This document shows, one piece after another, positions 11,978 through 35,000 of a stretch of DNA of 64,000 nucleotides (the first letter of the stretch is position 1; every line of letters starts with the position of its first letter). Made by a program: the position numbers and the translations under genes. Under the pieces are notes generated by a model. That model made no database searches and was not told the DNA's origin. It worked only from the letters and a program-made list of their open reading frames with translations. Origin of the DNA: Psychroserpens sp. (lineage in GTDB: Bacteria > Bacteroidota > Bacteroidia > Flavobacteriales > Flavobacteriaceae); the NCBI RefSeq assembly GCF_017643165.1, contig NZ_JAEPNY010000003.1. One strand, written 5' to 3'.

Positions 11978-12469
11978 CTATCTATTAGATTTTAACCACA
12001 ATTTTTGGTCAGTAACACCGCGTTTAAGGTTCTCGGTAAGTATTAGGGACTTGTCAATGCGCGTTTGAGATGATTTATAACGCAGAATCGCATAAATTAT
12101 GCTACGCTGTTTTCCTGGCGTTAAATTCTCGAAAATAATGTAAGCATCGTGATCACTTAAGAGTACAGCTTCTAATTCTTCTGGCATATCTACACCATAC
12201 TTTGATTGGTCCTCAAAAAGTTGCATCGTGAAATAATCATTCATAAATACACCCAAAGCTTTTTGCTTTTCTTTACTGAACATCAACACGCATAGTCCAT
12301 TTTTTTTTGCGGTTAAAGCGGCATAAAATACAATTTGCTGGTCATGGTAACTGGCATGTACTTTAACACGCTTTTGTTTTTCTGATAAAAACAAGTGCGC
12401 AACAGTATCGGGAATTATAACCGCATGAGAATGTGCTAAGCTCACTTCAAATGGATCACTCTGTAGCAT
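11978..12469 (-). CDS. YdeI/OmpD-associated family protein (DUF1905-like N-terminus)
   Basis: Size and the C-terminal pattern LTPGKQRSIIYAILRYKSSQTRIDK fit this family. Confidence 0.6.
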   Translation of the reverse strand: MLQSDPFEVSLAHSHAVIIPDTVAHLFLSEKQKRVKVHASYHDQQIVFYAALTAKKNGLCVLMFSKEKQKALGVFMNDYFTMQLFEDQSKYGVDMPEELEAVLLSDHDAYIIFENLTPGKQRSIIYAILRYKSSQTRIDKSLILTENLKRGVTDQKLWLKSNR

Positions 12470-12494: not shown

Positions 12495-12539
12495 TATGAC
12501 TAATGTCATATTTTTTCCAAATCATTGCTGCTATTTTTG
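12495..12539 (+). promoter_or_regulatory. Candidate Fnr-type box plus -7 promoter element upstream of hemN
   Basis: Perfect palindrome TATGAC-TAAT-GTCATA at 12495-12510. TATTTTTG (fits TAnnTTTG) at 12532-12539. Centre-to-TA distance is 29.5 nt. ATG at 12557. Confidence 0.6.
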
Positions 12540-12556
12540 ACTCAAATTGTTAAGGT

Positions 12557-13921
12557 ATGTGCAATTCATTAGTCAATAAGTATAATGTGGCTGGTCCGCG
12601 TTATACAAGTTACCCAACTGTACCGTATTGGGATAACAACTCATTTTCATTAAAACGATGGAAAGAATCATTAGCTGTTTCTTTTGATGAGAGCAATACG
12701 TCTGAAGGAATAAGTATTTATATCCATTTACCGTTTTGCGAAAGTATGTGTACGTTTTGTGGCTGCAATAAACGAATAACAAAGCGCCATGAGGTGGAGA
12801 TGCCTTATATCAAGGCCGTACTAAAGGAGTGGGATTTGTACTGCGAATTATTGAATGGAAGACCAGTTATTAAGGAACTTCATTTAGGTGGTGGAACACC
12901 AACATTTTTTTCTGCTGAGAATTTAGAGTATCTAATCAATGGGATTACACGTAAAGCACGCCTCAGTAAAGATTACGAGTTTAGTTTTGAAGGTCATCCT
13001 AATAATACAACTCGGGAACAACTTCAATCATTATATGATTTAGGATTTAGACGTGTTAGTTTTGGTGTTCAAGACTATAATGAGACGGTTCAAAAGGCTA
13101 TTAATAGAATTCAACCCTTTGAAAAAGTTAAGGCTGTGACAGACGCAGCGCGTGAGATTGGATACACCTCTGTTGGGCATGATATTATATTTGGCTTACC
13201 ATTTCAAACCAAATCACACATAGAAACTACAATAGCTTTGACTAAAGCATTAATGCCAGATCGAATCGCATTTTACAGTTATGCTCATGTGCCTTGGTTG
13301 AAAGGAAATGGACAACGTGGCTATAGAGATGAAGATGTTCCGAATGGTGATGTGAAACGCGAGCAATATGAATATGGAAAAGCATTATTGAGTGCTGCAG
13401 GCTATCATGAGATAGGAATGGATCATTTCGCCTTACAAACGGATAGTCTCTATAAAGCAATGGAGTCTAAATCGTTACATCGCAACTTTATGGGCTATAC
13501 AGCTTCCAAAACTCAAGCTATGATTGGCTTAGGTGTTTCTTCCATTAGTGATAGTTGGTATGGCTTTGCTCAAAATGTAAAAGGTATAGAAGAGTATTAT
13601 CACCTTGTAAACCAAGGGATTATTCCGGTGTATCGCGGACATATTTTAACTCCGGAAGATCTCATTGTAAGACAACATATATTGAATTTAATGTGTCATT
13701 TCGAAACGAACTGGAGTGACCGATCGTTATATATTGAAGAACTTAAGGACATCGTATTTAAACTTCATGAAATGGAGTCTGATGGCTTGGTTACCTTTGA
13801 AAAGCATGGCTTGAAAATTACCGAAAAAGGTAGACCATTCGTACGAAATGTATGCATGGCATTCGATGTTCTTTTACAGCGAAAACAACCAAGTACACGA
13901 TTGTTTTCGATGACCGTTTAA
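12557..13921 (+). CDS. hemN: Oxygen-independent coproporphyrinogen III oxidase (radical SAM)
   Basis: GPRYTSYPT N-terminus. Radical SAM CxxxCxxC motif (CESMCTFCGC). GGGTPTF. The length of ~454 aa is typical of HemN. Confidence 0.92.
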   Translation: MCNSLVNKYNVAGPRYTSYPTVPYWDNNSFSLKRWKESLAVSFDESNTSEGISIYIHLPFCESMCTFCGCNKRITKRHEVEMPYIKAVLKEWDLYCELLNGRPVIKELHLGGGTPTFFSAENLEYLINGITRKARLSKDYEFSFEGHPNNTTREQLQSLYDLGFRRVSFGVQDYNETVQKAINRIQPFEKVKAVTDAAREIGYTSVGHDIIFGLPFQTKSHIETTIALTKALMPDRIAFYSYAHVPWLKGNGQRGYRDEDVPNGDVKREQYEYGKALLSAAGYHEIGMDHFALQTDSLYKAMESKSLHRNFMGYTASKTQAMIGLGVSSISDSWYGFAQNVKGIEEYYHLVNQGIIPVYRGHILTPEDLIVRQHILNLMCHFETNWSDRSLYIEELKDIVFKLHEMESDGLVTFEKHGLKITEKGRPFVRNVCMAFDVLLQRKQPSTRLFSMTV

Positions 13922-21574: not shown

Positions 21575-22306
21575 TCAGGCATTACAATACTTCTGTTCTA
21601 ATGCAATTGCTTTAGGGAATAATATATTATTTTCTAAATGGATATGTGTGTGCAGATTGTGTTCAAATTCATCTAAGAGTTTAATAAGTGTCTTATAAGT
21701 TTCACAATTCCCTATAAAACCAGAAAAGTTTTTAGTGAGTTGTGAAATAAACCTAAAACGTTCATCTTCATTATTATGCTGCTCTTTTGCGATACTTATT
21801 GGATTTTTGACCGAACCGAATAATGATGCATCAATTCTTTTTTCATTGAGTGCTTTTTGGAGCTTCTTTATAAACGGAAACAATATGAGTTCTTCTTTTT
21901 TGATATGTGAATTCAATTCTCTGGCAAAATCGTTGAATAAAGACCGTAGCATATGAAGACCTTCGTGAACCTCACCATGAGATTCACAGAGTGTGTCTAA
22001 ATGATTTGATAAAATTGGTAATTGCGCTTCGATGTAGCTATGGTGAATATTTTGAATACTATCTGCTAATTCGTCTAAAGGAATATGTTTATAATTCACA
22101 CCTTTATAAGGTGCACTAGTAATTGTTTCAAGATCTTTAAATACATGATTAATGTTCAAACTCTTTGCCTCGCAAACTTCAGACAATAAATCATCACCAT
22201 GGCAATAGAAATCTATGTCATATGCGTTAAATACTTTAGCAGTTCTCTGATCTTCAGCGACAAATTCACCGATAGGTTTGTCTTTTAATTGCTTTCCAGG
22301 TTTCAT
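21575..22306 (-). CDS. ric: Iron-sulfur cluster repair di-iron protein (RIC / ScdA / YtfE family)
   Basis: ScdA_N-like N-terminus (FNAYDIDFYCHG). The rest is hemerythrin-like, with His/Glu ligands (HHSYIE, HIKKEE, HIHLENN). Confidence 0.85.
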   Translation of the reverse strand: MKPGKQLKDKPIGEFVAEDQRTAKVFNAYDIDFYCHGDDLLSEVCEAKSLNINHVFKDLETITSAPYKGVNYKHIPLDELADSIQNIHHSYIEAQLPILSNHLDTLCESHGEVHEGLHMLRSLFNDFARELNSHIKKEELILFPFIKKLQKALNEKRIDASLFGSVKNPISIAKEQHNNEDERFRFISQLTKNFSGFIGNCETYKTLIKLLDEFEHNLHTHIHLENNILFPKAIALEQKYCNA

Positions 22307-22403: not shown

Positions 22404-22823
22404 TTAAAATTGATCTAATAAAAAATTTATTAGATCGGTTGTGGTTACAATACCGACTAGCTTGTCATTATCTACAACTGGTAAAGCGTGAAATTCACGT
22501 TTAGAGAGAATTCTTGCTACCTCTTTAATAGACGTACTTGGGTTGACGCTTATTAGATTTTTCGCCATTACTTGTTCAATAGTGAACATATTATAAACGA
22601 TAGTGTCAACATCTTGTTCATACTCATCGACGGCATCTGCAAAGCTTATTCTAAGAAGATCTGTGTAACTTAACATTCCTATAATTTCCTTTTGATGAAC
22701 AACAGGAATATGACGTATGTTATTCTTCTTAAATAGTAATTCTGCTGTGTCTAAATTATCTGTTCTATTCAACGTTATCACATCTTTGGTCATAATCGTT
22801 GATACTGGTATATTATGTTTCAT
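22404..22823 (-). CDS. CBS domain pair protein
   Basis: Two CBS repeats (IMTKDVITL ... HIPVV and VMAKNLISV ... ALPVVD). Confidence 0.85.
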   Translation of the reverse strand: MKHNIPVSTIMTKDVITLNRTDNLDTAELLFKKNNIRHIPVVHQKEIIGMLSYTDLLRISFADAVDEYEQDVDTIVYNMFTIEQVMAKNLISVNPSTSIKEVARILSKREFHALPVVDNDKLVGIVTTTDLINFLLDQF

Positions 22824-22846: not shown

Positions 22847-22891
22847 TAAATGTACTTCCAGATAATCAGAAATAATATGATAATTGTCAGC
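22847..22891 (-). promoter_or_regulatory. Candidate Fnr-type box plus -7-like element upstream of the CBS gene (and ric)
   Basis: Minus-strand GCTGAC-AATT-ATCATA at 22891-22876. TACATTTA at 22854-22847. Spacing is 29.5 nt. Confidence 0.5.
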
Positions 22892-22949: not shown

Positions 22950-23651
22950 TTAGTGACAATCAATGGCGCTTGTTGCCATTTCAACTATAGGTGCAGGAGA
23001 GAGGTAGGGTATTCCTAGACCAAGACCTCTAACAATAAAAAGTGCTCCAATTATAATTACGAATACAGGAATTGCTTTTTGAATACGACGCTTAACCGTA
23101 GTATTCAAAAATTTTCCTAAATATATGGCTGTGGTCATTAATGGAATTGTACCTAATCCAAATAATGCCATGTACAGACTACTATGGGCTACGTTTTGTG
23201 CAGCGATAGATGCAATTACGGCCATATAAACCAATCCGCACGGTAAGAAACCATTTAAAAACCCTATGGTTAAAAACGTATCTGCAGACTTCTTTTTTAA
23301 GGCTTGTCCTAATGACGATTTGACCTTTGAAATGACTTTATAAATAGGTTTTGAGAAGTTGCATTTATTGAATGTGTTAACTGGTATGAGTACGATGATT
23401 ATCATTAAGACGCCAACAACAATCGAAAGTTGTTGCTGTATTCCGAAGATGTATAAACCTTTCCCAACCAATCCAAATATGAGACCTATGACGCTGTAGG
23501 CAAGTATTCTTCCTATATGATATGTCGAAATTTGAAGGATCTTTTTGGACGTGTTATTTCGGTCAACTGGAAGCATAAACGCGATTGGTCCACACATGCC
23601 AACACAGTGGAAGCTACCTAATAATCCGAATATGAGCGCCGACCATAACAT
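22950..23651 (-). CDS. TauE/SafE- or DsbD_2-like membrane protein of the cbb3 accessory cluster
   Basis: Six TM helices and the N-terminal motif GSFHCVGMCGP. It is the last gene of the ccoG-fixH string. Confidence 0.7.
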   Translation of the reverse strand: MLWSALIFGLLGSFHCVGMCGPIAFMLPVDRNNTSKKILQISTYHIGRILAYSVIGLIFGLVGKGLYIFGIQQQLSIVVGVLMIIIVLIPVNTFNKCNFSKPIYKVISKVKSSLGQALKKKSADTFLTIGFLNGFLPCGLVYMAVIASIAAQNVAHSSLYMALFGLGTIPLMTTAIYLGKFLNTTVKRRIQKAIPVFVIIIGALFIVRGLGLGIPYLSPAPIVEMATSAIDCH

Positions 23652-23662
23652 AGTTTAATGTT

Positions 23663-24109
23663 TTAGTAAACGATTGCTTTTTTGAAGAGATATGATTTTC
23701 CTCTATATTGCCAATCTACTTTAATGTTCCAACGACCATCCAACAAACGTTTGTCAGGTATGAGCAAATTGTGATTAGACAATGAAATAGAGCTTTCAAA
23801 GTCTAGTTGTTTGTTAGATGGTCTATATAGGAACACTTTTCCAGTAATGTTATCAATATTTAAATCTTCAGGGAATGAGATTAAAAGTCCGTCCTCTGTA
23901 CGTTTCCATGTGATATCATTTTCAAGTGTCTTTGCGTTACTTTCTTTATCAATATCACTTTGATATTCTAGTTCTTGCTTGTAATAGTCTTCCGTCACTA
24001 ATGACGTGTCATATTTGTCTACAGCACTCATGTTTATTACGAAGTACATTATAAATGCAATGAATGCAACAAATGCTATTACGATTCCTGTTCCCCAATT
24101 TAGTTTCAT
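23663..24109 (-). CDS. FixH family protein (CcoH-like)
   Basis: Single N-terminal TM (MKLNWGTGIVIAFVAFIAFIMYFV) followed by a ~110 aa domain. It sits directly downstream of ccoG. Confidence 0.75.
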   Translation of the reverse strand: MKLNWGTGIVIAFVAFIAFIMYFVINMSAVDKYDTSLVTEDYYKQELEYQSDIDKESNAKTLENDITWKRTEDGLLISFPEDLNIDNITGKVFLYRPSNKQLDFESSISLSNHNLLIPDKRLLDGRWNIKVDWQYRGKSYLFKKAIVY

Positions 24110-24120
24110 AACGTCTCTTT

Positions 24121-25545
24121 TTAATTATAACTTCTAGGGCCTAAAAAACTTACAGTTGTTGTTTCTATAAGCTCATCATTGCTATAGACATCGATCATAA
24201 GTTTGTTTTTATCGCCTTTGAGTTCGTTTTGATTTATTTCGATGAATAATGTGCCTTCGGCTAATCCTTGCGCTGGGACAAATACCTCATCATTTGTGGA
24301 TACCAGTTTAATTTCTCCATTGTAATTTCTTACTTTGAAATTAACATCTGTAATAGTATCCGTTGTTTTGTTAACTAGTTTATAAGTAAATACATTACTA
24401 ATCACATTTTCTGCTTTCCTTTCGAATAGTTGTCCAGGCAAACGTAATACTCGTGCTTCGACATCATTTCTTAATAATAGCATACCTGAAAGAACTCCAA
24501 TTAGAATTACTAAAACGGCCGTATATCCTTTTAGTCTAGGTGTAAATTCAAATTTTTTCTTCTTTTCAATATTATCTTCACTTGCATATCGGATAAGACC
24601 TCTAGGAAGGTTTATACTATCCATAATGTGATCACATTCGTCAATACAAGCGGTACAGTTTACACATTCTAATTGCGTACCATTTCTAATATCGATACCC
24701 GTAGGGCAAACATGTACACATTGCAAACAATCGATGCAATCGCCATGACCTAAAGCCTGTCTATCCTCATTCTTTCTAAATTTCTTACGTCCGTTTTCTC
24801 CTTCACCTCGTTTATGGTCGTAGGCGACAACGATAGATTTATTATCAAGCAATACACCTTGTAATCTTCCATAAGGGCATGCAATAATGCACACTTGCTC
24901 TCTAAACCAAGCAAATACAAAATAGAAGAGACCTGTAAATATCATTAACGGAAACAGGGTCCCTAAATGCGACCTTGGACCATCACTGATATAACCCAGT
25001 AGTTTATCACTTCCTATAAGATATGCTAAGAAGATATTCGCGATTAAGAAAGAGATCACTAAAAAGATGAACCATTTCAATACACGTTTTTTAATTTTTT
25101 CGGCATCCCATTTCTGTCTATCCAGTTTTCGCTGTTTATTTCTGTCACCATCAATCCAGTATTCGATACGTCGAAATACCATTTCCATAAATATGGTTTG
25201 AGGGCAAATCCATCCACAAAATATTCGACCAAATCCAACTGTGAATAAGGTTACGAAGATGACACCAATGATCATAGAGATCACAAACAAGTGAAAATCT
25301 TGTGGCCAAAACGGAAAGCTAAAAATATTAAAGCGACGTTCGAGTACATTAAACAACAAGAACTGGTTACCATTAATTTTAATAAATGGCGCCGCAAACA
25401 AAAACCCAAGTAAAAAATAGCTAACTACTTTACGTCGGTCGTAATAACGACCACTAGGTTTTTTTGGAAAGATCCAAGCGCGATTACCTTCTTCGGTAAC
25501 CGTTGCTATTGAATCTCTGAAGCTTTCGTTTTGGGGTGCATCCAT
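24121..25545 (-). CDS. ccoG: Cytochrome c oxidase accessory protein CcoG (4Fe-4S ferredoxin-type membrane protein)
   Basis: TM helices plus two Cys clusters (CIDCLQCVHVCP and CVNCTACIDEC). Confidence 0.9.
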   Translation of the reverse strand: MDAPQNESFRDSIATVTEEGNRAWIFPKKPSGRYYDRRKVVSYFLLGFLFAAPFIKINGNQFLLFNVLERRFNIFSFPFWPQDFHLFVISMIIGVIFVTLFTVGFGRIFCGWICPQTIFMEMVFRRIEYWIDGDRNKQRKLDRQKWDAEKIKKRVLKWFIFLVISFLIANIFLAYLIGSDKLLGYISDGPRSHLGTLFPLMIFTGLFYFVFAWFREQVCIIACPYGRLQGVLLDNKSIVVAYDHKRGEGENGRKKFRKNEDRQALGHGDCIDCLQCVHVCPTGIDIRNGTQLECVNCTACIDECDHIMDSINLPRGLIRYASEDNIEKKKKFEFTPRLKGYTAVLVILIGVLSGMLLLRNDVEARVLRLPGQLFERKAENVISNVFTYKLVNKTTDTITDVNFKVRNYNGEIKLVSTNDEVFVPAQGLAEGTLFIEINQNELKGDKNKLMIDVYSNDELIETTTVSFLGPRSYN

Positions 25546-25548
25546 GGC

Positions 25549-26541
25549 TTAGTTTTGTGCTACAGAAACTGAATCTGTAACGACTTCATTAACTTCAGTT
25601 TCTGGTGTTCCTTCTTCAGTTGTACCTTCAGTAGCATCTGTTGATTCTTCTGAAGATGCTGCAGTTTCATCAACCCATATTTCACCTTCAGCAGCTTTAG
25701 GTTCTGCTGGAGTAGTCCCTTGGAATTCTAAAACATAACTTGCTACTTGAGCCATTTGTGATGGTTTTAAACTTTGCTTCCAAGCAATCATGCCTTTACC
25801 ATCACGACCGCCTTCAGAAATGGTTTTAAATACATTCTTAATGCCACCACCCAAAATCCAATTTTCATCCGTTAGGTTAGGTCCAATACCGCCACCACCA
25901 TCAGATTTGTGACATGCCACACAGTTGGTTTCAAAAATGGCTTTCCCAGCGCTAAGATCTGAAGCATCTGTTAAGCGTTCTACTGTGTTAAAATCGACTA
26001 AATCTTTAGCTGTCTTTTTATATTCTTCAATATCTATTTTTGCTTGGGCAATATCAGCTTCGAGATCTTCAAATTGATTATTGCCGTCAAAAATGTGGAA
26101 TCTCGCCAAGTAAATTGCTGCAAAAATGATCGTTGCATAGAATCCGTACAGCCACCAAGGTGGGAGATCGTTATCAAGCTCTTTGATACCATCATAATTG
26201 TGATCTAAGATCAATTCATGCTCCTCTTCAATAGGTTTAGAACCTAAAAGCTTCAAGTATGTTTTTTTCGCCCATAGTGCAAATTTTGAAGGCGCTTTTT
26301 GTTTCGAATTATAGCGTTCCTTAGCTTCTTCACTTAGACTCTGGTATAAAACATTGTCAATAGAACCCACAATGCCTTCAATGGCAATTAGTATCAACAA
26401 TACAAGTAGTAAGAACAATAATATTACGGGTTGTTCTATAAATGCTGGTTGATCACCAGATTCTACAACGTATTCAACGCCTGCAAATATGATAAAGAAT
26501 ACAACTGGTACTCTTATCCAAGATGGAATTCTATTTCTCAT
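25549..26541 (-). CDS. ccoP: cbb3-type cytochrome c oxidase subunit III-like protein (CcoP, single haem c)
   Basis: CcoP N-terminal domain (DGIKELDNDLPPWW). One CxxCH motif (CVACH). The C-terminal tail is rich in acidic, Ser and Thr residues. Confidence 0.85.
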   Translation of the reverse strand: MRNRIPSWIRVPVVFFIIFAGVEYVVESGDQPAFIEQPVILLFLLLVLLILIAIEGIVGSIDNVLYQSLSEEAKERYNSKQKAPSKFALWAKKTYLKLLGSKPIEEEHELILDHNYDGIKELDNDLPPWWLYGFYATIIFAAIYLARFHIFDGNNQFEDLEADIAQAKIDIEEYKKTAKDLVDFNTVERLTDASDLSAGKAIFETNCVACHKSDGGGGIGPNLTDENWILGGGIKNVFKTISEGGRDGKGMIAWKQSLKPSQMAQVASYVLEFQGTTPAEPKAAEGEIWVDETAASSEESTDATEGTTEEGTPETEVNEVVTDSVSVAQN

Positions 26542-26723
26542 AGTTCTGATTGGTTTTGATTGTCTAAAGGAATATTACTCACTTTCGTGATATAGTCTTT
26601 TTTAGCAGTTATGACCCACCATCCAAGGATGACGAAAAAACTGAAAAATATAATTAAGGAGATCAAAGGATAGATTTCTATTCCTGTGATGCTTTCCATA
26701 TGATGTTTTACAAATTTTAGCAT
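26538..26723 (-). CDS. ccoQ: CcoQ/FixQ-like small membrane subunit
   Basis: 61 aa with one TM (IYPLISLIIFFSFFVILGWWV). It lies between ccoNO and ccoP and overlaps ccoP by 4 nt. Confidence 0.6.
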   Translation of the reverse strand: MLKFVKHHMESITGIEIYPLISLIIFFSFFVILGWWVITAKKDYITKVSNIPLDNQNQSEL

Positions 26724-26729
26724 GACGTC

Positions 26730-28919
26730 TTAGTTTTGAGTTGTTGTTAGTTCAGGCTCTTTCACTTTGATATCAGTACCTAAACGTTGTAAATAAGCTA
26801 TTATCGCTACGATCTCACGATTACGCATTTCTATAAAATCTTCACCACCTGCAGCTTTATCAGCTTCATAGGTTTTTGCAAAATCTGGATCTGTATATAG
26901 ATTTTTCTCGATCTGAGTACCTTGCGCAAGCATTGATTCTTGAGCGTTAGCAATGTCATCCTCAGAATATGGAACTCCTAGTGTTACCATCGCTCGCATT
27001 TTTGCCTCAGTCTGAGACTTATCAAGTTCATTTCTAACTAACCATTGATAAGCAGGCATTATGGAACCAGATGAGGTACTCTGTGGGTCATACATATGAT
27101 TTAAGTGCCAGTTATCGGAATACTTACCACCGACACGATGTAAGTCTGGACCTGTACGTTTACTACCCCAAAGGAATGGGTGATCGTATACATATTCACC
27201 AGCCTTAGAATATTCACCGTAGCGTTCGACTTCATTTCTAAACGGTCTAACCATTTGAGAGTGACAGCCAACACAGCCTTCTCTGATATATATATCTCGT
27301 CCTTCAAGTTCTAAAGGTGTGTAGGGTTGGACGCTTGTAATTGTTGGAATATTCGATTCAACAAGTAGAGTTGGAATAATTTGCACAACACCACCGATAA
27401 GGATCGCAATAGTTGCGAAAATGGTTAATTTGATCGGCTTACGCTCTAACCAAGTATGCCATCCTTCACCTGTTACTCGACGCTTAGATACACGCTTCAA
27501 TGGTGCAGCTTCAGCTAATTCGTCTGTTACGGCGCTACCATTTCTGATTGTGATGATCACGTTAACAATCATGATAATCATACCAGTTAAGAATAATGTA
27601 CCACCAATAGCACGCATCCAGTACATTGGAATAATTTCTGTAACAGTTTCTAAGAAGTTACCATACACTAATGTTCCATCTGGGTTAAATTGTTTCCACA
27701 TTGCCCATTGCGTAAATCCTGCAACATACATTGGGAGTGCATAGAAAATGATACCTAAGGTACCTATCCAGAAATGCAAATTGGCCATTGGCACCGAGTG
27801 TAGTTTCGTTTTAAATAATTTCGGAACCAGATAATAGATCATACCAAAGGTGAGGAATCCATTCCAAGCTAATGCTCCAACGTGAACGTGTGCAATAATC
27901 CAGTCTGTAAAGTGTGCCATGGCATTCATACTTTTTACCGAAAGCATTGGTCCTTCAAATGTGGCCATACCATAACCGGTAATCGCCACCACCATAAACT
28001 TTAAAACGGGGTCTGTACGAACTTTATCCCATGCACCTCGCAGTGTTAACAGTCCGTTAATCATACCACCCCAAGAAGGCATAATTAGCATTACAGAGAA
28101 TGTTACACCTAAATTTTGTGCCCATTCTGGTAAAGCTGTATATAATAAATGGTGAGGACCAGCCCAGATGTAAATGAAAATTAAAGACCAGAAGTGCACA
28201 ATAGAAAGCCTGTAGGAATACACAGGTCTATTAGCTGCTTTTGGTACAAAGTAATACATCAGTCCTAAAAATGGTGTTGTAAGGAAGAACGCCACGGCAT
28301 TATGTCCATACCACCATTGAACGAGTGCATCTTGAACACCAGCATAGACAGAGTAACTTTTCAGACCACTTACTGGGAGTTCTAAACTATTAAAAATATG
28401 AAGTACAGCAACAGTCACAAATGTCGCTATGTAGAACCAAATGGCTACATATAAATGACGTTGTCTACGTTTTAGGATCGTTGCGATTAAATTCCAACCG
28501 AATACAACCCATACCAGAGCAATGGCGATATCAATTGGCCACTCCAATTCTGCGTATTCTTTCGATGTTGTAATTCCGAGTGGAAGTGTAACGGCCGCGC
28601 TCACTATGATTAATTGCCATCCCCAGAAATTAATTTTACTCAAAGTATCACTCCACATACGCGTCTTGAGAAGTCGTTGCGACGAGTAATATACTCCAGC
28701 GAAAATGGCATTACCAACGAATGCAAAAATGACTGCATTGGTATGTAACGGTCGTAATCGACCGAAACTTAACCATGAAATACCGTCAGTGAGGTTAGGG
28801 AATAAAAACATGAATGCCAGGATGAGACCTACGAGCATTCCTACAACTCCCCAAAGCATGGTAGCGTAGAGGAAATTTTTAACGATTTTGTTATCGTAAT
28901 GAAACTGTTGAACTTCCAT
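26730..28919 (-). CDS. ccoNO: cbb3-type cytochrome c oxidase, fused subunits I and II (CcoN-CcoO)
   Basis: About 12 or more TM helices with haem-copper His motifs (HNAVAFF, GPHHL, AHVHVGA). The C-terminal CcoO part carries CVGCHSQMVRP. Confidence 0.93.
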   Translation of the reverse strand: MEVQQFHYDNKIVKNFLYATMLWGVVGMLVGLILAFMFLFPNLTDGISWLSFGRLRPLHTNAVIFAFVGNAIFAGVYYSSQRLLKTRMWSDTLSKINFWGWQLIIVSAAVTLPLGITTSKEYAELEWPIDIAIALVWVVFGWNLIATILKRRQRHLYVAIWFYIATFVTVAVLHIFNSLELPVSGLKSYSVYAGVQDALVQWWYGHNAVAFFLTTPFLGLMYYFVPKAANRPVYSYRLSIVHFWSLIFIYIWAGPHHLLYTALPEWAQNLGVTFSVMLIMPSWGGMINGLLTLRGAWDKVRTDPVLKFMVVAITGYGMATFEGPMLSVKSMNAMAHFTDWIIAHVHVGALAWNGFLTFGMIYYLVPKLFKTKLHSVPMANLHFWIGTLGIIFYALPMYVAGFTQWAMWKQFNPDGTLVYGNFLETVTEIIPMYWMRAIGGTLFLTGMIIMIVNVIITIRNGSAVTDELAEAAPLKRVSKRRVTGEGWHTWLERKPIKLTIFATIAILIGGVVQIIPTLLVESNIPTITSVQPYTPLELEGRDIYIREGCVGCHSQMVRPFRNEVERYGEYSKAGEYVYDHPFLWGSKRTGPDLHRVGGKYSDNWHLNHMYDPQSTSSGSIMPAYQWLVRNELDKSQTEAKMRAMVTLGVPYSEDDIANAQESMLAQGTQIEKNLYTDPDFAKTYEADKAAGGEDFIEMRNREIVAIIAYLQRLGTDIKVKEPELTTTQN

Positions 28920-28925
28920 AATAAT

Positions 28926-29114
28926 TTAATTAGACTTTTTGATTTTAATAGATGGTTTAGGCTGTTCTTTTACGAGTTCGTCCTCGAAAAGCATTCTAAC
29001 AGAAGGCGTATAGCTGTCATCAAATTGACCTCTTTTTACTGCTGTTATGAACGCAATAAAAAAGCCAATAGCAACAATTATACTGATGCACAATAAAATA
29101 TATATAACACTCAT
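28926..29114 (-). CDS. ccoS: cbb3 oxidase maturation protein CcoS
   Basis: 62 aa with an N-terminal TM, followed by VKRGQFDD, which is typical of CcoS/FixS. Confidence 0.85.
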   Translation of the reverse strand: MSVIYILLCISIIVAIGFFIAFITAVKRGQFDDSYTPSVRMLFEDELVKEQPKPSIKIKKSN

Positions 29115-29134: not shown

Positions 29135-29181
29135 CAAAAATACTTCTGAACTGATTCTTAAAACATGACTTATGTCATGTT
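29135..29181 (-). promoter_or_regulatory. Candidate Fnr-type box plus -7 element upstream of ccoS-ccoNOQP
   Basis: Palindrome AACATGAC-TTAT-GTCATGTT at 29162-29181 with 8-nt arms. Minus-strand TATTTTTG at 29142-29135. Spacing is 29.5 nt. Confidence 0.6.
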
Positions 29182-29194
29182 CATTTATTTTTAT

Positions 29195-31567
29195 TCATTC
29201 TAATCTTCTTCCTAATACATTTGTTGCAATTGTGGTGAAAATCACAATGCTGATTGAACTTAATGGCATTAGAATAGCTGCAATCACTGGTGCTAACTGT
29301 CCAGTTACCGCGAAATAGAGTCCGATGATATTGTATATAAATGACAATACGAAGCTCCATTTTATGATTGAAATAGCACTTCGTGAAGCGCTAATAAACT
29401 TGTCTAGTTGATTGAATTTTGAGGCGTCTAAAATGGCATCACATGCCGGAGAGAATACGTTGACGTTTTCGGAAATAGCTATACCTACGTTACTTTGCGC
29501 TAATGCTCCAGCATCATTTAATCCATCGCCAATCATTAAAACCTTAGCGCCTTCACCTTGATGATATTTAATATACTCCAGCTTATCATCTGGTTTCTGA
29601 TTGAATATTAGTTTCGTCTTTGCTGGCAATAGCTTTTTTAAATTTTCTTGCTCACCTTCATTATCACCGGATAAGACAACGAGATCATATTTTGATTTTA
29701 GGGTATTAAATAATTTTGAAAGTCCTTTACGATAACTATTATAAAAGGTGAATTTTCCTTTATACACATCATTAGTACTGACATGCACTGTTGTATTTAA
29801 AATGGTGTTTTCTTGTGCTCCGACAAAGCTTGCAGATCCGATTTTGATATGATCGTTATGATGTTTGGCTTCGATACCTTTTCCTAAATGTTCTTTAAAA
29901 TGTTCAAGAGGTATAATATTGTGTTCATCTAAGATGTCATAGAGCGTTCTACTAAGGGGGTGATTAGAACCTCGCAGCGTGTTTTTTAGAAGCGTTTCTT
30001 CAGAATTTGTCAATGGGATACCATCATAATTAGCACGACTCTTTTTGTTTGAAGTAATCGTGCCTGTTTTATCAAAAATGATCGTATTTATATGAGCGAG
30101 TTGTTCTAATGCAGACGCATTCTTGACATAAAATTTTAATTTTCCGAAGATGCGTAATAAATTACCAAAAGTGAATGGTGCAGATAACGCTATAGCACAT
30201 GGGCACGCAATAATAAGAACTGCTGTAAATACATTCATGGCCTTTGATGCATCAATTATGAGCCAATAGGTTGTTGCGATAAACGCAATGGCTAAAACAG
30301 CTATAGTAAATCGTTTACTAATGGCATTGGTCAAATTGGTGAAACCATCCTCTTTATTTTTATTAAAGACATCATTACTCCATAGCTGCGTGAGGTAACT
30401 TTGTTCAACAGATTTGAGTGCTTCCATTTCAATAACACCTGTTGTTTGTTTACCTCCAGCGAATAGTTTGTCTCCTGATTGTTTTCGCACCGATTCAGAT
30501 TCACCGGTTACAAAACTATAATCGATATGCGCATTTCCGTTTATTAGTATACCATCGACAGGGATCAACTCCTCATTACGTATTAATAAGCGGTCGCCTT
30601 TTTTTATATCATACACCTGAATAGGCGTTTCTTCTCCTGATTTCGATATTTTCGTGACTGCGATTGGAAAATAAGATTTGTAATCACGTTCAAAGGATAA
30701 AAATGAATACGTCTTCTGCTGAAAGAACTTTCCAACTAAAAGGAAAAATACTAATCCAGTTAGGCTATCGAAGAAACCAGATCCTAAATCGAACATGATC
30801 TCAACCGTACTCCTGATAAAGAGAACCGCAATACCTAAAGCGATCGGTACATCAATATTTAAAAGCCTGGATCGTAAGCCTTTATACGCTGAAATAAAGT
30901 AATCTCGTCCGGCATAAAAAACAACGGGTAGCGCATAACCAAACATAATCCATCTGAATAAATGCTTGTACTGCTCCAGCCAATATTCTCCAACCTCGAA
31001 ATACTCTGGAAATGACAAAAACATCACATTTCCGAAGGCAAAACCTGCTACACCTAGTTTATAAATAAGAGATCTATTAACTTTAGATGATCCTGTTTTA
31101 AAGTCGTCAAGTGATATATAAGGTTCATAACCAATTGAACTTAGTAAGAGCACTACGTCTTTTAAGCTCACATTTTCGGCGTTATACGTGACGCGTACTG
31201 TCTTCTTACCAAAGTTCACCATAGAAGCAGTGATGCTTTGATTCAGTTTATTAAGATTCTCTAAAATCCAGATACAAGAACTACAGTGAATGTGTGGAAT
31301 ATAAAGTGTCGCGATTTGTGTTTTACCATCGTTAAATTCGGTAAGTTTTTCAATGATGTTTTCTTCTGAAAGAAAATCGTATTTGCCTTGAATTTCCTTC
31401 GGAATGGCTCCAGGTGATGATTCTAAGTCATAGTAGCATGTAAGATCATTTTCTGAAAATATCTCATACACAGTTTTACAGCCATTACAACAGAAATGCT
31501 TTTCCTGGAATGTTATTTTGGTGGAATTACAGTCATCACCACAGTGGAAACAAGTTGTTTGTTCCAT
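29195..31567 (-). CDS. ccoI: Heavy-metal (copper) translocating P-type ATPase, CcoI/FixI type
   Basis: N-terminal CxxC pairs (CFHCGDDC, CCNGC). CPC motif (IIACPCAIALS). DKTGT and GDGLNDAGAL. ATG at 31567 (MEQTTCFHCG) is preferred over the ORF-track start at 31603. Confidence 0.9.
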   Translation of the reverse strand: MEQTTCFHCGDDCNSTKITFQEKHFCCNGCKTVYEIFSENDLTCYYDLESSPGAIPKEIQGKYDFLSEENIIEKLTEFNDGKTQIATLYIPHIHCSSCIWILENLNKLNQSITASMVNFGKKTVRVTYNAENVSLKDVVLLLSSIGYEPYISLDDFKTGSSKVNRSLIYKLGVAGFAFGNVMFLSFPEYFEVGEYWLEQYKHLFRWIMFGYALPVVFYAGRDYFISAYKGLRSRLLNIDVPIALGIAVLFIRSTVEIMFDLGSGFFDSLTGLVFFLLVGKFFQQKTYSFLSFERDYKSYFPIAVTKISKSGEETPIQVYDIKKGDRLLIRNEELIPVDGILINGNAHIDYSFVTGESESVRKQSGDKLFAGGKQTTGVIEMEALKSVEQSYLTQLWSNDVFNKNKEDGFTNLTNAISKRFTIAVLAIAFIATTYWLIIDASKAMNVFTAVLIIACPCAIALSAPFTFGNLLRIFGKLKFYVKNASALEQLAHINTIIFDKTGTITSNKKSRANYDGIPLTNSEETLLKNTLRGSNHPLSRTLYDILDEHNIIPLEHFKEHLGKGIEAKHHNDHIKIGSASFVGAQENTILNTTVHVSTNDVYKGKFTFYNSYRKGLSKLFNTLKSKYDLVVLSGDNEGEQENLKKLLPAKTKLIFNQKPDDKLEYIKYHQGEGAKVLMIGDGLNDAGALAQSNVGIAISENVNVFSPACDAILDASKFNQLDKFISASRSAISIIKWSFVLSFIYNIIGLYFAVTGQLAPVIAAILMPLSSISIVIFTTIATNVLGRRLE

Positions 31568-31593
31568 AGAAATTTGCTCATTAATACCTGTTA

Positions 31594-31638
31594 CAAAAGT
31601 CACAAAAGAACTGCGGGAAAAATATGATTTTTGTCATG
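31594..31638 (-). promoter_or_regulatory. Candidate Fnr-type box plus -7-like element upstream of ccoI, in the divergent region shared with the Crp/Fnr gene
   Basis: Minus-strand CATGAC-AAAA-ATCATA at 31638-31623. GACTTTTG at 31601-31594. Spacing is 29.5 nt. Confidence 0.5.
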
Positions 31639-31674
31639 TTTTAATTATCTTTACCCTTGACTAAAAAATTAGGT

Positions 31675-32352
31675 ATGAGTAGATGTGAACAATGCATCAT
31701 ACGCGAGTTTAACACCTTAAAAGCACTTACAAAAGAGGAGTTAATTCGCATCTCGGGATGTAAAACTTCCAAAACTGTTAAGAAAGGAGAAATCATTTTT
31801 GAAGAGGGCGATACCCTGAATGGCGTTTATTGTGTCAAAGACGGAATTTGTAAAATGTCGAAGTTAAGTGCCAATGGCAAAGATCAGATCGTCAAGCTGA
31901 TCGTTAAAGGAGATCTTATGGGTAAGAATTCCATTATTCGAGAAGAATCAGCCAACTTAACAGCTGTTGCTTTAAATGATATGGAAGTATGCTTCATACC
32001 TAAACAGGAGATTATGAATGATCTTAAGAAGAACCCGAATTTCTCCATGGAGGTGCTTAAAAAGATGACCAATGATCTAAAAACCTCAGAAAACATAATA
32101 GTGAATATGGCACAGAAGTCGGTTAAGCAACGATTAGCCGACCTTCTTATTTATATACATGACTCATTTGGAGTGGACGAGAACGGTTTCCTGAAAATTG
32201 TATTGTCACGTGAAGATTATGCGAATGTTGTAGGAACGGCTACAGAATCTGCGATTCGCATATTATCTCAGTTTAAGAAAGCTGGTTACATTTCAACAGA
32301 AGGTAAACAGATAAAAATTGAGCGTATTCAAAAACTCAAGCTCATAGAGTAA
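31675..32352 (+). CDS. Crp/Fnr family transcriptional regulator
   Basis: cNMP-binding-like beta-roll (GEIIFEEGDTLNGVYCVKDGICK) and a C-terminal HTH (REDYANVVGTATESAIRILSQF). The N-terminus MSRCEQC carries a CxxC pair. ATG at 31675 is preferred over the TTG at 31657. Confidence 0.85.
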   Translation: MSRCEQCIIREFNTLKALTKEELIRISGCKTSKTVKKGEIIFEEGDTLNGVYCVKDGICKMSKLSANGKDQIVKLIVKGDLMGKNSIIREESANLTAVALNDMEVCFIPKQEIMNDLKKNPNFSMEVLKKMTNDLKTSENIIVNMAQKSVKQRLADLLIYIHDSFGVDENGFLKIVLSREDYANVVGTATESAIRILSQFKKAGYISTEGKQIKIERIQKLKLIE

Positions 32353-32406
32353 TTTTATAATTCCTTTAGTATTTTTCAGTAGAAAATGCCTTAATTTTAT
32401 ACGGCA

Positions 32407-33534
32407 ATGAAACAGAAAAATAATTACAGGAAAGGATTCGTCTTCAAAAGCTACGAGGCGCCTAATCAATCACCATTTGAAAAACTCTTCGAGATCTTTA
32501 AAGAGCTCATTACGTATACATCTGGGGACTTTGATGAAGCCATAGATTGGCTACGGCAGTTAGATAAGGAATACGAACTAACCACTGCCGAATATACTAT
32601 AGATGATTTTATTGAAGACCTAAAAAAGAAAGGATATATCAAGGAAGAAATAGATCCTGATGGAAATGGTGGTCTATCAATAACCGCTAAAACAGAACGC
32701 GCGATACGTCAGCAAGCCTTAGATCATATTTTCGGAAAAATCAAACGCAGCGGACGTGGAAATCATAAAAGTAAAAGTCCGGGATTAGGCGATGAGCATA
32801 CAGGAGATTTTAGATCCTATCAATTTGGTGATGCTTTAGAGAAAGTGTCCGTTACCGAGAGTTTACGCAACGCTCAAATCAATCATGGTATTGGTAATTT
32901 TAATTTGACCGAAGATGATCTCGTGGTTGAAGAAACGATGCATAAATCTCAAATGAGTACCGTACTTATGATTGATATAAGTCACAGTATGATATTGTAT
33001 GGAGAAGACCGAATTACGCCTGCTAAAAAAGTGGCTTTGGCTTTGGCGGAGTTAATAACAACCCGTTATCCTAAAGATACTTTGGACATTTTAGTATTTG
33101 GGAACGATGCCTGGCAAATTCAGATTAAAGATTTACCGTATTTAAAAGTAGGACCTTATCATACCAATACAGTTGCTGGATTGCAATTGGCCATGGATTT
33201 ATTAAGACGCAAAAGAAATACGAACAAACAAATTTTCATGATTACAGATGGTAAACCTAGTTGCTTGCGTTTATCTGATGGACAGTATTATAAGGATAGT
33301 AATGGGTTGAATCCATATATTACGAATAAGTGCTATGCGATGGCACAGCAAGCCCGTAAATTGCATATTCCAATAACCACATTTATGATTGCGCAGGATC
33401 GCTATTTGATGCAGTTCGTTCAAGAATTCACACGCGCTAATCAAGGGAAAGCTTTTTACACAGGATTAAAAGGATTAGGAGAGATGATCTTCGAAGATTA
33501 TGAAACCAACAGGAAAAAAAGAATTAAAGGATAA
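32407..33534 (+). CDS. VWA (von Willebrand factor A) domain protein
   Basis: MIDAS motif DxSxS (MIDISHSM) with downstream MITDGKPS. The stop overlaps the next start by 1 nt. Confidence 0.8.
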   Translation: MKQKNNYRKGFVFKSYEAPNQSPFEKLFEIFKELITYTSGDFDEAIDWLRQLDKEYELTTAEYTIDDFIEDLKKKGYIKEEIDPDGNGGLSITAKTERAIRQQALDHIFGKIKRSGRGNHKSKSPGLGDEHTGDFRSYQFGDALEKVSVTESLRNAQINHGIGNFNLTEDDLVVEETMHKSQMSTVLMIDISHSMILYGEDRITPAKKVALALAELITTRYPKDTLDILVFGNDAWQIQIKDLPYLKVGPYHTNTVAGLQLAMDLLRRKRNTNKQIFMITDGKPSCLRLSDGQYYKDSNGLNPYITNKCYAMAQQARKLHIPITTFMIAQDRYLMQFVQEFTRANQGKAFYTGLKGLGEMIFEDYETNRKKRIKG

Positions 33535-35000
33535 TGAATATAGAAAAGATAAAAACTTTAGGTGAATTGAAGGCCACTGGCTATCATTCAAGATCAATTA
33601 AAGATGAACTTCGTGTCAATTTAATTGAGAATATCAGAAATGGACATAACACTTTTGAAGGTGTACATGGCTATGAAAACACTGTGATTCCTGAATTAGA
33701 ACGCGCTATTTTATCACGACATAATATCAACTTACTCGGTTTACGAGGTCAGGCCAAGACACGCTTGGCGAGACTTATGTTGAATCTTCTAGATGAATAT
33801 ATACCAGTAGTTGAAGGCTCTGAGATCAACGACGATCCTTTGGCGCCTATTTCTAGATATGCTGTACAATTGATTGAAGACAAAGGTGACGCTACTCCAA
33901 TATCATGGCTGCATCGTAGTGAACGATTTGCAGAAAAATTAGCAACACCAGATGTAACCGTAGCCGATATTATTGGTGATGTAGACCCAATCAAAGCTGC
34001 TAACCTGAAATTGAGTTATGCTGATGATCGTGTGATTCACTATGGGATGATTCCACGAGCGAATAGATGTATTTTCGTGATTAATGAACTTCCTGATTTA
34101 CAGGCAAGAATTCAAGTAGCCCTTTTTAATATCTTACAGGAAGGTGACATTCAAATACGTGGTTTTAAACTGCGATTACCATTAGATCTACAATTTATTT
34201 TTACGGCCAACCCTGAAGACTACACAAATCGTGGAAGTATCGTTACACCGTTAAAAGATCGAATAGGAAGTCAAATTTTAACCCACTATCCAACCGACAT
34301 TGAGACGGCAAGATTGATAACAGAGCAAGAAGCGCGAATATTAGAAGAACAAAATTCATCGGTTACTGTTCCTGATCTCGCGAAAGATCTATTGGAACAA
34401 ATTGTTTTCGAAGCCAGAGAAAGTGAACTGATTGATGCGAAGAGTGGAGTAAGTGCAAGACTAAGCATAACCGCGTTTGAAAATTTATTAAGTACTGCGG
34501 AACGACGCGCATTAAAAGTGGGCGATGATCAAACCTTATTGCGTTTAAGTGATTTTTTAGGAATTATTCCTGCAATTACGGGTAAAGTAGAGCTGGTTTA
34601 TGAAGGCGAACAAGAAGGCGCTGCAGTTGTTGCATATAATTTGATAGGTGAAGCAGTTAAAAGTTTATTTCCAGAGTTTTTCCCTAAAATTGAAAAGCTG
34701 AAGAAGGAAGATGATGATACACCTTACGATGATATCGTGTCTTGGTTCTTTAATCAGCAAGACGGATTTGAACTTATGGATGACTTAAGAGATAAGGAAT
34801 ATAAAGCAATACTTGATGCAATTTCACCTTTAGATGATTTACTAGGGGAATATCAACCGGGATTAAAGAAAGCGGAGAGTTATTTTGTTAAAGAATTTGT
34901 TTTATGGGCACTTGTCGAATATAAGCAACTGAGCAAATTTCGTTTTACTGAAGGTATTCAATTTAAAGACCCTTACGGTAGTTTTATAAGTGGAATATAA
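33534..35000 (+). CDS. AAA+ ATPase, Mg-chelatase (ChlI/BchI)-like
   Basis: ChlI-like layout: GYENTVIPELERAIL, the P-loop region LLGLRGQAKTRLAR and the Walker-B region CIFVINELPDL. It is coupled to the VWA gene. Confidence 0.7.
   Translation: MNIEKIKTLGELKATGYHSRSIKDELRVNLIENIRNGHNTFEGVHGYENTVIPELERAILSRHNINLLGLRGQAKTRLARLMLNLLDEYIPVVEGSEINDDPLAPISRYAVQLIEDKGDATPISWLHRSERFAEKLATPDVTVADIIGDVDPIKAANLKLSYADDRVIHYGMIPRANRCIFVINELPDLQARIQVALFNILQEGDIQIRGFKLRLPLDLQFIFTANPEDYTNRGSIVTPLKDRIGSQILTHYPTDIETARLITEQEARILEEQNSSVTVPDLAKDLLEQIVFEARESELIDAKSGVSARLSITAFENLLSTAERRALKVGDDQTLLRLSDFLGIIPAITGKVELVYEGEQEGAAVVAYNLIGEAVKSLFPEFFPKIEKLKKEDDDTPYDDIVSWFFNQQDGFELMDDLRDKEYKAILDAISPLDDLLGEYQPGLKKAESYFVKEFVLWALVEYKQLSKFRFTEGIQFKDPYGSFISGI

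Follow-up and report, generated by a model that had tools for sequence, protein, structure and literature searches.

Flavobacteriaceae are major degraders of algal and particle-borne organic matter and include fish pathogens; they are nominal aerobes that meet steep oxygen gradients. How such a bacterium might switch on its low-oxygen genes is the question raised by a 64,000-nucleotide (nt) stretch of a Psychroserpens genome (contig C3 or NZ_JAEPNY010000003.1, positions 166007-230006; hereafter the window), in which a 16-nt palindrome, or dyad, recurs in front of hemN, the cbb3 oxidase operon ccoS-ccoNOQP, a gene for a CBS-pair protein and ccoI. An original prediction, drawn from the letters of the window, had placed each of these four dyads 29.5 nt upstream of a TAnnTTTG-like -7 promoter element and had proposed them as binding sites of a Crp/Fnr activator encoded beside one of them. 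The analysis reported here is computational throughout, apart from a published study of Flavobacterium psychrophilum on which it draws. It indicates that the dyad is very probably the operator of Crp/Fnr-family activators acting in class II fashion on Bacteroidota sigma-A promoters and switching on a low-oxygen regulon, with two regulators probably involved.

All four dyads lie where they had been predicted and read as claimed in the orientation of their genes, and in each case 29.5 nt separate the dyad centre from the first base of the TAnnTTTG-like element. The hemN dyad TATGACTAATGTCATA (TATGAC-TAAT-GTCATA; 12495-12510, + strand) is a perfect 16-nt palindrome that scores 20.7 with a palindromic position weight matrix (PWM) made from the four window sites. 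It is directly followed by a run of T residues (12511-12516, +; about -33 to -28) and then by the TAnnTTTG box TATTTTTG at 12532-12539 (+), with a predicted transcription start site (TSS) near 12544. The gene behind it (12557-13921, +; Pfam Radical_SAM and HemN_C) encodes oxygen-independent coproporphyrinogen III oxidase and is a true HemN equivalog in NCBIfam TIGR00538 (424 bits against a cut-off of 325); gene identities were assigned by Pfam and NCBIfam searches. The dyad upstream of ccoS, CATGACATAAGTCATG (CATGAC-ATAA-GTCATG; 29164-29179, - strand), is likewise a perfect palindrome and the best PWM match genome-wide (21.6), and the same box, TATTTTTG, stands at 29142-29135 (-), with a predicted TSS at about 29130. 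The cbb3 operon that it precedes (22950-29114, -; Pfam) is tightly packed on one strand and consists of ccoS (28926-29114), a ccoNO fusion (26730-28919), a small open reading frame (ORF; 26538-26723), ccoP (25549-26541), ccoG (24121-25545) and the genes for FixH (23663-24109) and a DsbD_2 protein (22950-23651).

The dyad of the CBS gene, GCTGACAATTATCATA (GCTGAC-AATT-ATCATA; 22876-22891, -; PWM 16.4), has a weaker distal arm with C at position 2, and is followed by the TAnnTTTG box TACATTTA at 22854-22847 (-), with a predicted TSS at about 22842. The gene encodes a 139-amino-acid protein with two Pfam CBS domains (22404-22823, -), and 97 nt downstream of it lies ric/scdA (21575-22306, -; Pfam ScdA_N and hemerythrin). 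The last dyad, CATGACAAAAATCATA (31623-31638; CATGAC-AAAA-ATCATA in the ccoI orientation; PWM 18.9), is shared between ccoI (-) and the divergent regulator gene (+). The product of ccoI/fixI (29195-31567, -) is the P-type copper ATPase for cbb3 maturation (Pfam E1-E2_ATPase, Hydrolase, ATPase-cat_bd and HMA). Its -7-like box GACTTTTG (31601-31594, -; predicted TSS 31589) has a poor TA and a conserved TTTG, and relatives carry AACCTTTG or similar at this position. The start of ccoI was corrected from a GTG at 31603 to the in-frame ATG at 31567, and therefore this box lies upstream of the gene and not inside it.

The motif recurs more often than chance would give. ATGAYN4RTCAT is found five times in the window against 0.81 expected, a count that none of 100 shuffles reached; its copies at 37584 and 51329, inside long ORFs and without a box, were taken as chance. 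According to a crude longest-ORF gene map (91% coding), intergenic DNA makes up 9.2% of the 3.14-Mb genome, and six of the seven genomic occurrences of ATGAC-N4-GTCAT fall in it (P=4e-6), as do 11 of the 15 PWM matches scoring at least 16. When the 19 intergenic PWM matches of at least 13 are considered, 12 have TAnnTTT[GA] exactly at +29.5 (0.15 expected; P=3e-20), and all other offsets hold at most one. An offset scan, in which the core TGAy-N4-rTCA was sought at 12.5-60.5 nt from each TAnnTTT[GA] on both strands of the genome, gave 27 pairs at 29.5 against a mean of 1.1 at each of the 48 other offsets (Poisson P~3e-28). Neither the E. coli box TTGAT-N4-ATCAA (4/39 intergenic genome-wide) nor control dyads with other spacers, inverted arms or TCAC/GTGA arms showed comparable intergenic enrichment in the genome, the former showing none. 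The motif is thus strongly intergenic and coupled to the -7 box at one offset, as the original prediction had implied, and the regulon in the Psychroserpens genome is predicted to comprise at least 27 promoters.

Conservation was followed in one genome per genus of Flavobacteriaceae (about 25-30 genera per gene) and in a sample of 80 named species; the named relatives include Psychroserpens, Winogradskyella, Lacinutrix, Algibacter and Kordia. The ccoI/regulator dyad keeps a fixed position in 29/30 genera and in 74/80 named species. Upstream of ccoS-ccoNO the dyad is present in 27/28 genera, 24 of them with the box at 29.5, and site and box occur together in 67/80 named species. At hemN it was found in 23/27 genera, and 21 have the box exactly at 29.5; the sequence of the 21-nt spacer between them is not conserved. 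Orthologous CBS genes carry a dyad at 24 of 27 loci (18 with the box at 29.5), located 58-168 nt upstream and mostly at 60-75 nt. Sites and spacing are therefore kept at hemN, ccoS-ccoNO, ccoI and the CBS gene while the flanks drift. The helical phasing is fixed at every level: 27 pairs against about one in the genome, 21/23 hemN and 24/27 ccoS dyads, and 61/102 in the windows around hybrid regulator genes described below. Orthologous ric loci mostly lack any site and have a coupled one in 3/25 only, so that ric was dropped as a regulon member and the conserved target is the CBS gene. The low-oxygen target set originally proposed consequently holds for cbb3, ccoI and hemN, and the CBS gene takes the place of ric, whose membership in Psychroserpens is uncertain. 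The predicted conserved core comprises ccoS-ccoNOQP-ccoGH, ccoI, hemN and the gene for the CBS-pair protein.

The position of the dyad relative to the start of transcription follows from the F. psychrophilum TSS map, where the sigma-A consensus TAnnTTTG occupies -12 to -5 (PMC9723704). Transferred to Psychroserpens, this value would centre the dyads, that of hemN among them, at -41.5, in agreement with what had been predicted, and each dyad would span -49 to -34. On the same box position, the conserved T-run after the dyad falls at -33 to -30. Class II activators of the CRP/FNR family are characteristically centred at -41.5. In the general promoters of the Psychroserpens genome the -33 element is almost information-free, with a weak T preference at -35 to -32. 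The T-run is visible after most dyads compared and is kept at the cco sites of other genera, where an AA flank lies distal and a TT flank proximal to the dyad; the palindrome is therefore about 20 bp long, as in the CRP site. The T-run would be the TT flank of an extended AA-dyad-TT palindrome and/or a weak -33 element. The available RNA evidence consists of assembled contigs from public RNA-seq of Psychroserpens, with imprecise ends. On the hemN side such contigs begin at 12553 and 12559, never covering box or dyad, and one ccoI contig ends at 31590, which lends weak support to the predicted hemN and ccoI starts.

Which protein would bind the dyad? The gene next to ccoI (31675-32352, +) encodes P0001, a 225-amino-acid protein with Pfam cNMP_binding and HTH_Crp_2 domains. 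It belongs to the Crp/Fnr superfamily by its matches to PF00027 (E=5.5e-20, above the cut-off), PF13545 (E=1.4e-14) and PF00325, and its alignment to Aliivibrio fischeri FNR runs over the full length (E=4e-23). In this alignment Cys4, Cys7 and Cys106 correspond to FNR Cys20, Cys23 and Cys122; Cys29, Cys53 and Cys59 are additional relative to FNR. These six cysteines, together with Asn13, are invariant in 18 aligned orthologues, and five of the six are also visible in all 30 genera. A different fourth cluster ligand (Cys29, 53 or 59) is conceivable. The recognition helix reads TATESAIR where FNR has VETISR, with Glu and Arg kept and Ser212 changed to Ile. P0001 lacks the features of FNR proper, namely the four cluster cysteines, a score above the NF008365 threshold and the E--SR helix that reads TTGAT-N4-ATCAA. 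Judged by its sequence, it is FNR-like and not demonstrably an FNR.

The genome holds four solid Crp-type helix-turn-helix (HTH) proteins, and the FNR-like E...R recognition helix is present in two only; the other Crp-type paralogues (C3:445663-446334 and C2:334512-335144), whose helices lack this pattern, were set aside. The second protein with the pattern is a hybrid that joins a receiver, a cNMP-binding-like domain and an HTH of the Crp type in one polypeptide (C2:169953-171005, -; Pfam Response_reg, cNMP_binding and HTH_Crp_2). Its ORF lies directly downstream of that of a triple-PAS histidine kinase (C2:171002-172882, -; Pfam three PAS, HisKA and HATPase_c), and the two overlap by 4 nt. 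The recognition helix of the hybrid, IATETLIR, shares the pattern ATE[ST]xIR with P0001.

The phyletic distribution of the two proteins, scored with cut-offs of E<=1e-20 for a P0001 match and E<=1e-50 for the receiver-Crp hybrid, shows that either can accompany the box. Genera that have cbb3 and lack a P0001 orthologue all carry the hybrid, and 17 of these 20 retain the coupled ccoS dyad at 29.5; the remaining three are two contig-edge cases and one locus without a dyad in the scanned region. Since these hybrid-only genera keep the box along with the same type of helix, P0001 is not the only candidate binder, and the regulator at 31675 was rejected as the sole one. The original prediction, which had pointed to this adjoining gene as the regulator, thus needs amending on two counts: P0001 is not the only candidate, and, FNR-like as it is, it fails two defining features of FNR, the third N-terminal cysteine and the NCBIfam cut-off. 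In the FNR-only genera, which have a P0001 orthologue and no hybrid, the coupled cco box is present in 14 of the 16 scored, and in 14 of 16 the P0001 orthologue is the only match at E<=1e-20. The 18 genera without a P0001 match at this cut-off are all without ccoNO as well, so that cbb3 is missing where neither regulator is present. The simplest reading of these sequence comparisons is that both regulators probably recognise one core box, placed identically for either of them.

The outer bases of the dyad vary with the regulator present. Where the FNR-like protein is present, cco dyads lean towards CATGAy...rTCATG, and in hybrid-only genera towards nCTGAy...rTCAT(T/A). An A at position 2 is carried by 11/14 genera with the FNR-like protein and by 5/17 hybrid-only ones (P=0.011), and a G at position 16 by 8/14 and 1/17, respectively (P=0.004); both tests are uncorrected for phylogeny. 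The originally described yATGAC-N4-(G/A)TCATr is accordingly the FNR-type flavour of the box, and the CBS site GCTGAC...ATCATA seems closer to the hybrid type. Around the hybrid gene itself, a 'hypoxia island' (C2:147000-190000) holds at least ten dyad/box pairs at 29.5, mostly AATGAT-N4-ATCATT, which precede five tandem universal stress protein genes (164880-169855), a CBS-pair gene, an MlaE gene, a phasin-like gene and neighbours of the kinase operon. The 17-kb windows at the hybrid genes of 20 other genera (340 kb) contain 61 coupled sites. Their density is some 20-fold that of the whole Psychroserpens genome, their consensus is ACTGAT-N4-ATCAT(T/A), and they show a single peak at 29.5. In some genera the hybrid gene adjoins the FNR-like gene and the cco cluster (G116:C1:1375796-1384834, G094:C1:1567938-1570631), and in others 5-40 kb separate it from ccoNO; linkage of both regulators to this one locus is thus frequent.

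Physiological evidence comes from F. psychrophilum, whose cbb3 operon is reported to respond to oxygen limitation with strong induction; hemN and a monohaem c-type cytochrome are co-expressed with it, and further haem-biosynthesis enzymes are induced as well (PMC9723704). All three of cbb3, hemN and the monohaem cytochrome c carry sites in Psychroserpens, and their hypoxic induction in F. psychrophilum matches the predicted core regulon. It is indirect evidence, by analogy, for the predicted dependence of transcription on an activator. The F. psychrophilum study names neither a regulator nor a motif for the hypoxic response (PMC9723704), and a literature search yielded no flavobacterial FNR box and no regulator or cis-element named for the low-oxygen response; a CRP/FNR survey (PMC3590769) and a microbiome study (PMC8510549), the second with a MalR matrix, give Bacteroidetes or Flavobacteriales no more than a passing mention.

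The model proposed here is that a regulator dimer would bind the core TGAy-N4-rTCA, extended to AA-yATGAy-N4-rTCATr-TT, and that, centred at -41.5 and abutting the weak -33 region, it would recruit or activate sigma-A RNA polymerase at the TAnnTTTG box (-12 to -5). The FNR-like protein would likely sense O2 through a cysteine-ligated Fe-S cluster and would prefer yATGAy...rTCATr; the receiver-Crp hybrid would be phosphorylated by the triple-PAS kinase and would prefer A(C/A)TGAT...ATCAT(T/A). At the regulator's own promoter, occupancy of the dyad might lead to autorepression. A further reading is offered tentatively, as slightly less likely than not: in their hypoxia response, marine Flavobacteriaceae would use one rigid class II box for two interchangeable sensors with different input chemistry, and lineages would keep one or both. 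As parts of that same tentative reading, the outer dyad bases (A/C at position 2; G/A or T/A at position 16) would tune which sensor dominates at each promoter, and the ligand set of the FNR-like protein would be CxxC, Cys106 and a fourth ligand, plus three further invariant cysteines.

Other explanations of the dyad have to be set against this model. In a genome of 36% G+C, where the spacers of the four window sites consist of A and T throughout, an origin by chance or base composition within AT-rich intergenic DNA comes to mind; the shuffles, the intergenic bias, the single-offset peak and the conservation across genera and 80 named species refute it, and practically no weight is left to it. 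The dyad could also be the operator of a repressor; in air it would obstruct the -33 region, and low oxygen would derepress the genes. A protein over -49 to -34 would indeed overlap that region, and the dyad stands in a repression-type position both at the regulator's promoter and at the divergent neighbour of hemN. Repressors, however, need no single-bp phasing with a -7 box, and more than 85% of orthologous sites are at exactly 29.5; this rigidity of spacing, in the genome and across genera, favours direct polymerase contact over simple repression. As -41.5 is the class II position of CRP/FNR activators, and as the regulated promoters have good -7 boxes with the dyad in place of a -33 element, repression is considered highly improbable. 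Slightly less so, and still very unlikely, is that only the hybrid, with its PAS kinase, binds the dyad, while the FNR-like protein reads something else or merely adjoins a hybrid site. The retention of the 29.5 box upstream of ccoS in 17/20 genera without the FNR-like protein would fit this idea, as would the frequent proximity of the hybrid gene to cco and the density of coupled sites around hybrid genes. Nevertheless, the cco box is kept in 14/16 FNR-only genera and hemN boxes in the same genus set, the FNR-like protein shares the E...IR recognition helix, and the outer dyad positions shift with its presence.

The nature of the signal leaves more room for doubt. It has to be considered, as an unlikely yet serious alternative, that the architecture stands and the signal is other than O2: the FNR-like protein would then sense nitric oxide, redox or thiol state, haem or iron-sulfur status by means of its unusual set of six cysteines, and the PAS kinase would supply the oxygen or redox input. 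The Asn in place of the third FNR cluster ligand and the extra invariant cysteines 29, 53 and 59 are in line with this, as are the ric and CBS proteins near the sites and the induction of the F. psychrophilum C52 cluster, which includes cbb3, by the iron chelator 2,2'-dipyridyl. On the other hand, the conserved targets cbb3, ccoI and hemN form the classical set for O2 limitation, which oxygen deprivation induces in F. psychrophilum, and ric is not a conserved target.

The activator model, preferred over these alternatives, also has several findings to contend with. P0001 has Asn13 at the position of FNR Cys29, the third N-terminal cluster cysteine, and so keeps three of the four cluster cysteines; its best NCBIfam family is Fnr (NF008365), with 100.5 bits against a cut-off of 228. 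Given this residue and a score so far below the cut-off, its Fe-S cluster and O2 sensing remain putative. The -41.5 position was carried over from another genus, the ccoI box GACTTTTG is a poor, degenerate -7 element, and low-depth RNA contigs run across the cco and CBS promoters, for which reason, together with the restriction to assembled contigs, the RNA support is weak. The intergenic and coding calls depend on the crude gene map, and the tests of covariation between dyad and regulator ignore phylogenetic non-independence. Finally, TAnnTTTG is absent at 29.5 on both sides of a conserved dyad that stands between hemA, the glutamyl-tRNA reductase gene, and an AraC-family gene divergent from it. 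This perfect dyad, TATGACAAATGTCATA (C1:292004-292019), is conserved about 120 nt upstream of hemA in some 11 close genera, and a conserved CTAAAAAACC block occupies the 29.5 position. Therefore, not every site fits the class II model, and hemA, with no box at 29.5 on either strand, was rejected as a class II target and stands as an unexplained exception.

Several known systems resemble the one proposed. FNR of E. coli and Aliivibrio has the same fold as P0001, aligns with it over the full length, and shares the N-terminal CxxC, the Cys122 equivalent and the recognition-helix Glu and Arg that read the TGA core. FNR class II promoters have the same 5-6 nt arms, 4-nt spacer and -41.5 centre (in the flavobacterial case transferred from F. 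psychrophilum), and FNR targets likewise include cbb3/cco, hemN and ompW. In the box itself, TTGAT-N4-ATCAA differs from the flavobacterial yATGAy-N4-rTCATr, in which the first T is replaced by A and the last arm position is C/T. P0001 departs from FNR in the Ile for Ser212, the Asn for the third N-terminal cysteine and the three other invariant cysteines, and the partner promoter is of the Bacteroidota sigma-A -33/-7 type instead of the -35/-10 type. This sigma-A promoter, said to have been described by Bayley in 2000 and by Chen in 2007, reportedly has a -33 TTTG and a -7 TAnnTTTG. The regulated promoters share with it the TAnnTTT[G/A] box at the expected distance from start codons, whereas they carry the dyad in place of the -33 element.

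Paired regulators are known from Pseudomonas (Anr/Dnr) and the alpha-proteobacteria (FnrL/FixK, FixLJ-FixK), where two members of the family differ very little in core specificity and have low-oxygen regulons that overlap; one is a direct sensor and one is driven by a PAS histidine kinase. A counterpart of this arrangement is predicted in the flavobacteria. In FixLJ-FixK a separate response regulator induces the Crp/Fnr gene, whereas the flavobacterial arm unites receiver, cNMP-like and HTH_Crp domains, and, in contrast to the paired systems, either flavobacterial regulator can be absent from a genus while the box stays. The hypoxia island recalls Mycobacterium DosS/DosT-DosR, in which the genes turned on by PAS/GAF-type kinases and a response regulator likewise form a block with many universal stress proteins. 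The HTH is of the Crp and not the LuxR type, and box and phylum differ, so that this resemblance is functional only. Five points set the proposed system apart from FNR class II activation and the paired regulators: the box, the ligand set of the FNR-like protein, the receiver-Crp fusion, the interchangeability of the regulators among genera and the -33/-7 promoter context. As a cis-element and regulon it is solidly supported by the sequences.

The box, its geometry and the two candidate regulators make the flavobacterial hypoxic response directly testable, and the regulon can be predicted in hundreds of genomes, as more than 580 species matched the regulator patterns. The box would also provide a defined oxygen-responsive promoter for genetic tools in Bacteroidota, in which standard promoters fail. 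Strict -41.5 phasing on a -33/-7 promoter bears on how an activator contacts the unusual Bacteroidota sigma-A, and the two-sensor reading, if true, would be a clear case of Crp/FNR-type class II activation on a Bacteroidota sigma-A (-33/-7) polymerase.

Beyond the conserved core, coupled sites were found at the promoters of genes for a TonB-C protein, a CitMHS/TrkA-C permease, a 616-amino-acid CBS protein, OmpW, a small membrane ORF, a ribosome hibernation factor, PPK2, the monohaem cytochrome c and several unknowns, as well as of universal stress proteins in a block on contig C2 (147-190 kb). Two sites of a different make were noted. A CRP-like perfect palindrome, TGTGAC-TTTT-GTCACA (C1:504571-504586), lies 29.5 nt from TATTTTTA and precedes a gene for a 350-amino-acid pyridine-nucleotide-disulphide oxidoreductase that resembles thioredoxin reductase or ferredoxin-NADP reductase; this site may be one of the same regulators or of a different Crp paralogue. 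The other, TTTGAC-TTAA-GTCAAA (C2:914659-914674), is 29.5 nt from TAGATTTG, upstream of a gene for a 168-amino-acid protein without a Pfam match, and is nearer to the canonical FNR/FixK TTGA-N6-TCAA box.

The regulator gene may have a promoter of its own beside the ccoI dyad. A possible -7 box, TATCTTTA (31647-31654, +), is located about 16.5 nt from the dyad centre, and a TAtTTTTAC block is conserved at its position in 29 genera. The dyad would thus lie inside the core promoter of the regulator, a possible autorepression geometry; E. coli fnr is a known case of autorepression. Contigs of the regulator (31679-32500) reached a word depth of 58-97x in four public RNA-seq runs, against about 3-19x in the cco/ccoI region, which suggests that the regulator is well expressed under the sampled, unspecified conditions while its targets are low. 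Directly downstream of it on the + strand follow genes for a VWA-domain protein (32407-33534) and an AAA_5/MoxR-like ATPase (33534-35000). Both may be co-transcribed with the regulator, and as a pair they recall NorD/NorQ-type haem-copper oxidase maturation factors.

In the ccoI leader (31567-31593, -), the block CAGGTATAAATGAGCAAA between the -7 box and the ATG is conserved in about 29 genera. An out-of-frame ATG within it begins a short upstream ORF, which varies in length and overlaps the ccoI start; the block could encode a leader peptide or serve in translation initiation. On the other side of hemN, a divergent YdeI/OmdA-family gene (11978-12469, -) starts 33.5 nt from the centre of the hemN dyad, and one RNA contig from its side reaches 12520. 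With a start so near and RNA extending that far, the dyad possibly lies in the promoter or leader of this gene and, when occupied, may repress it.

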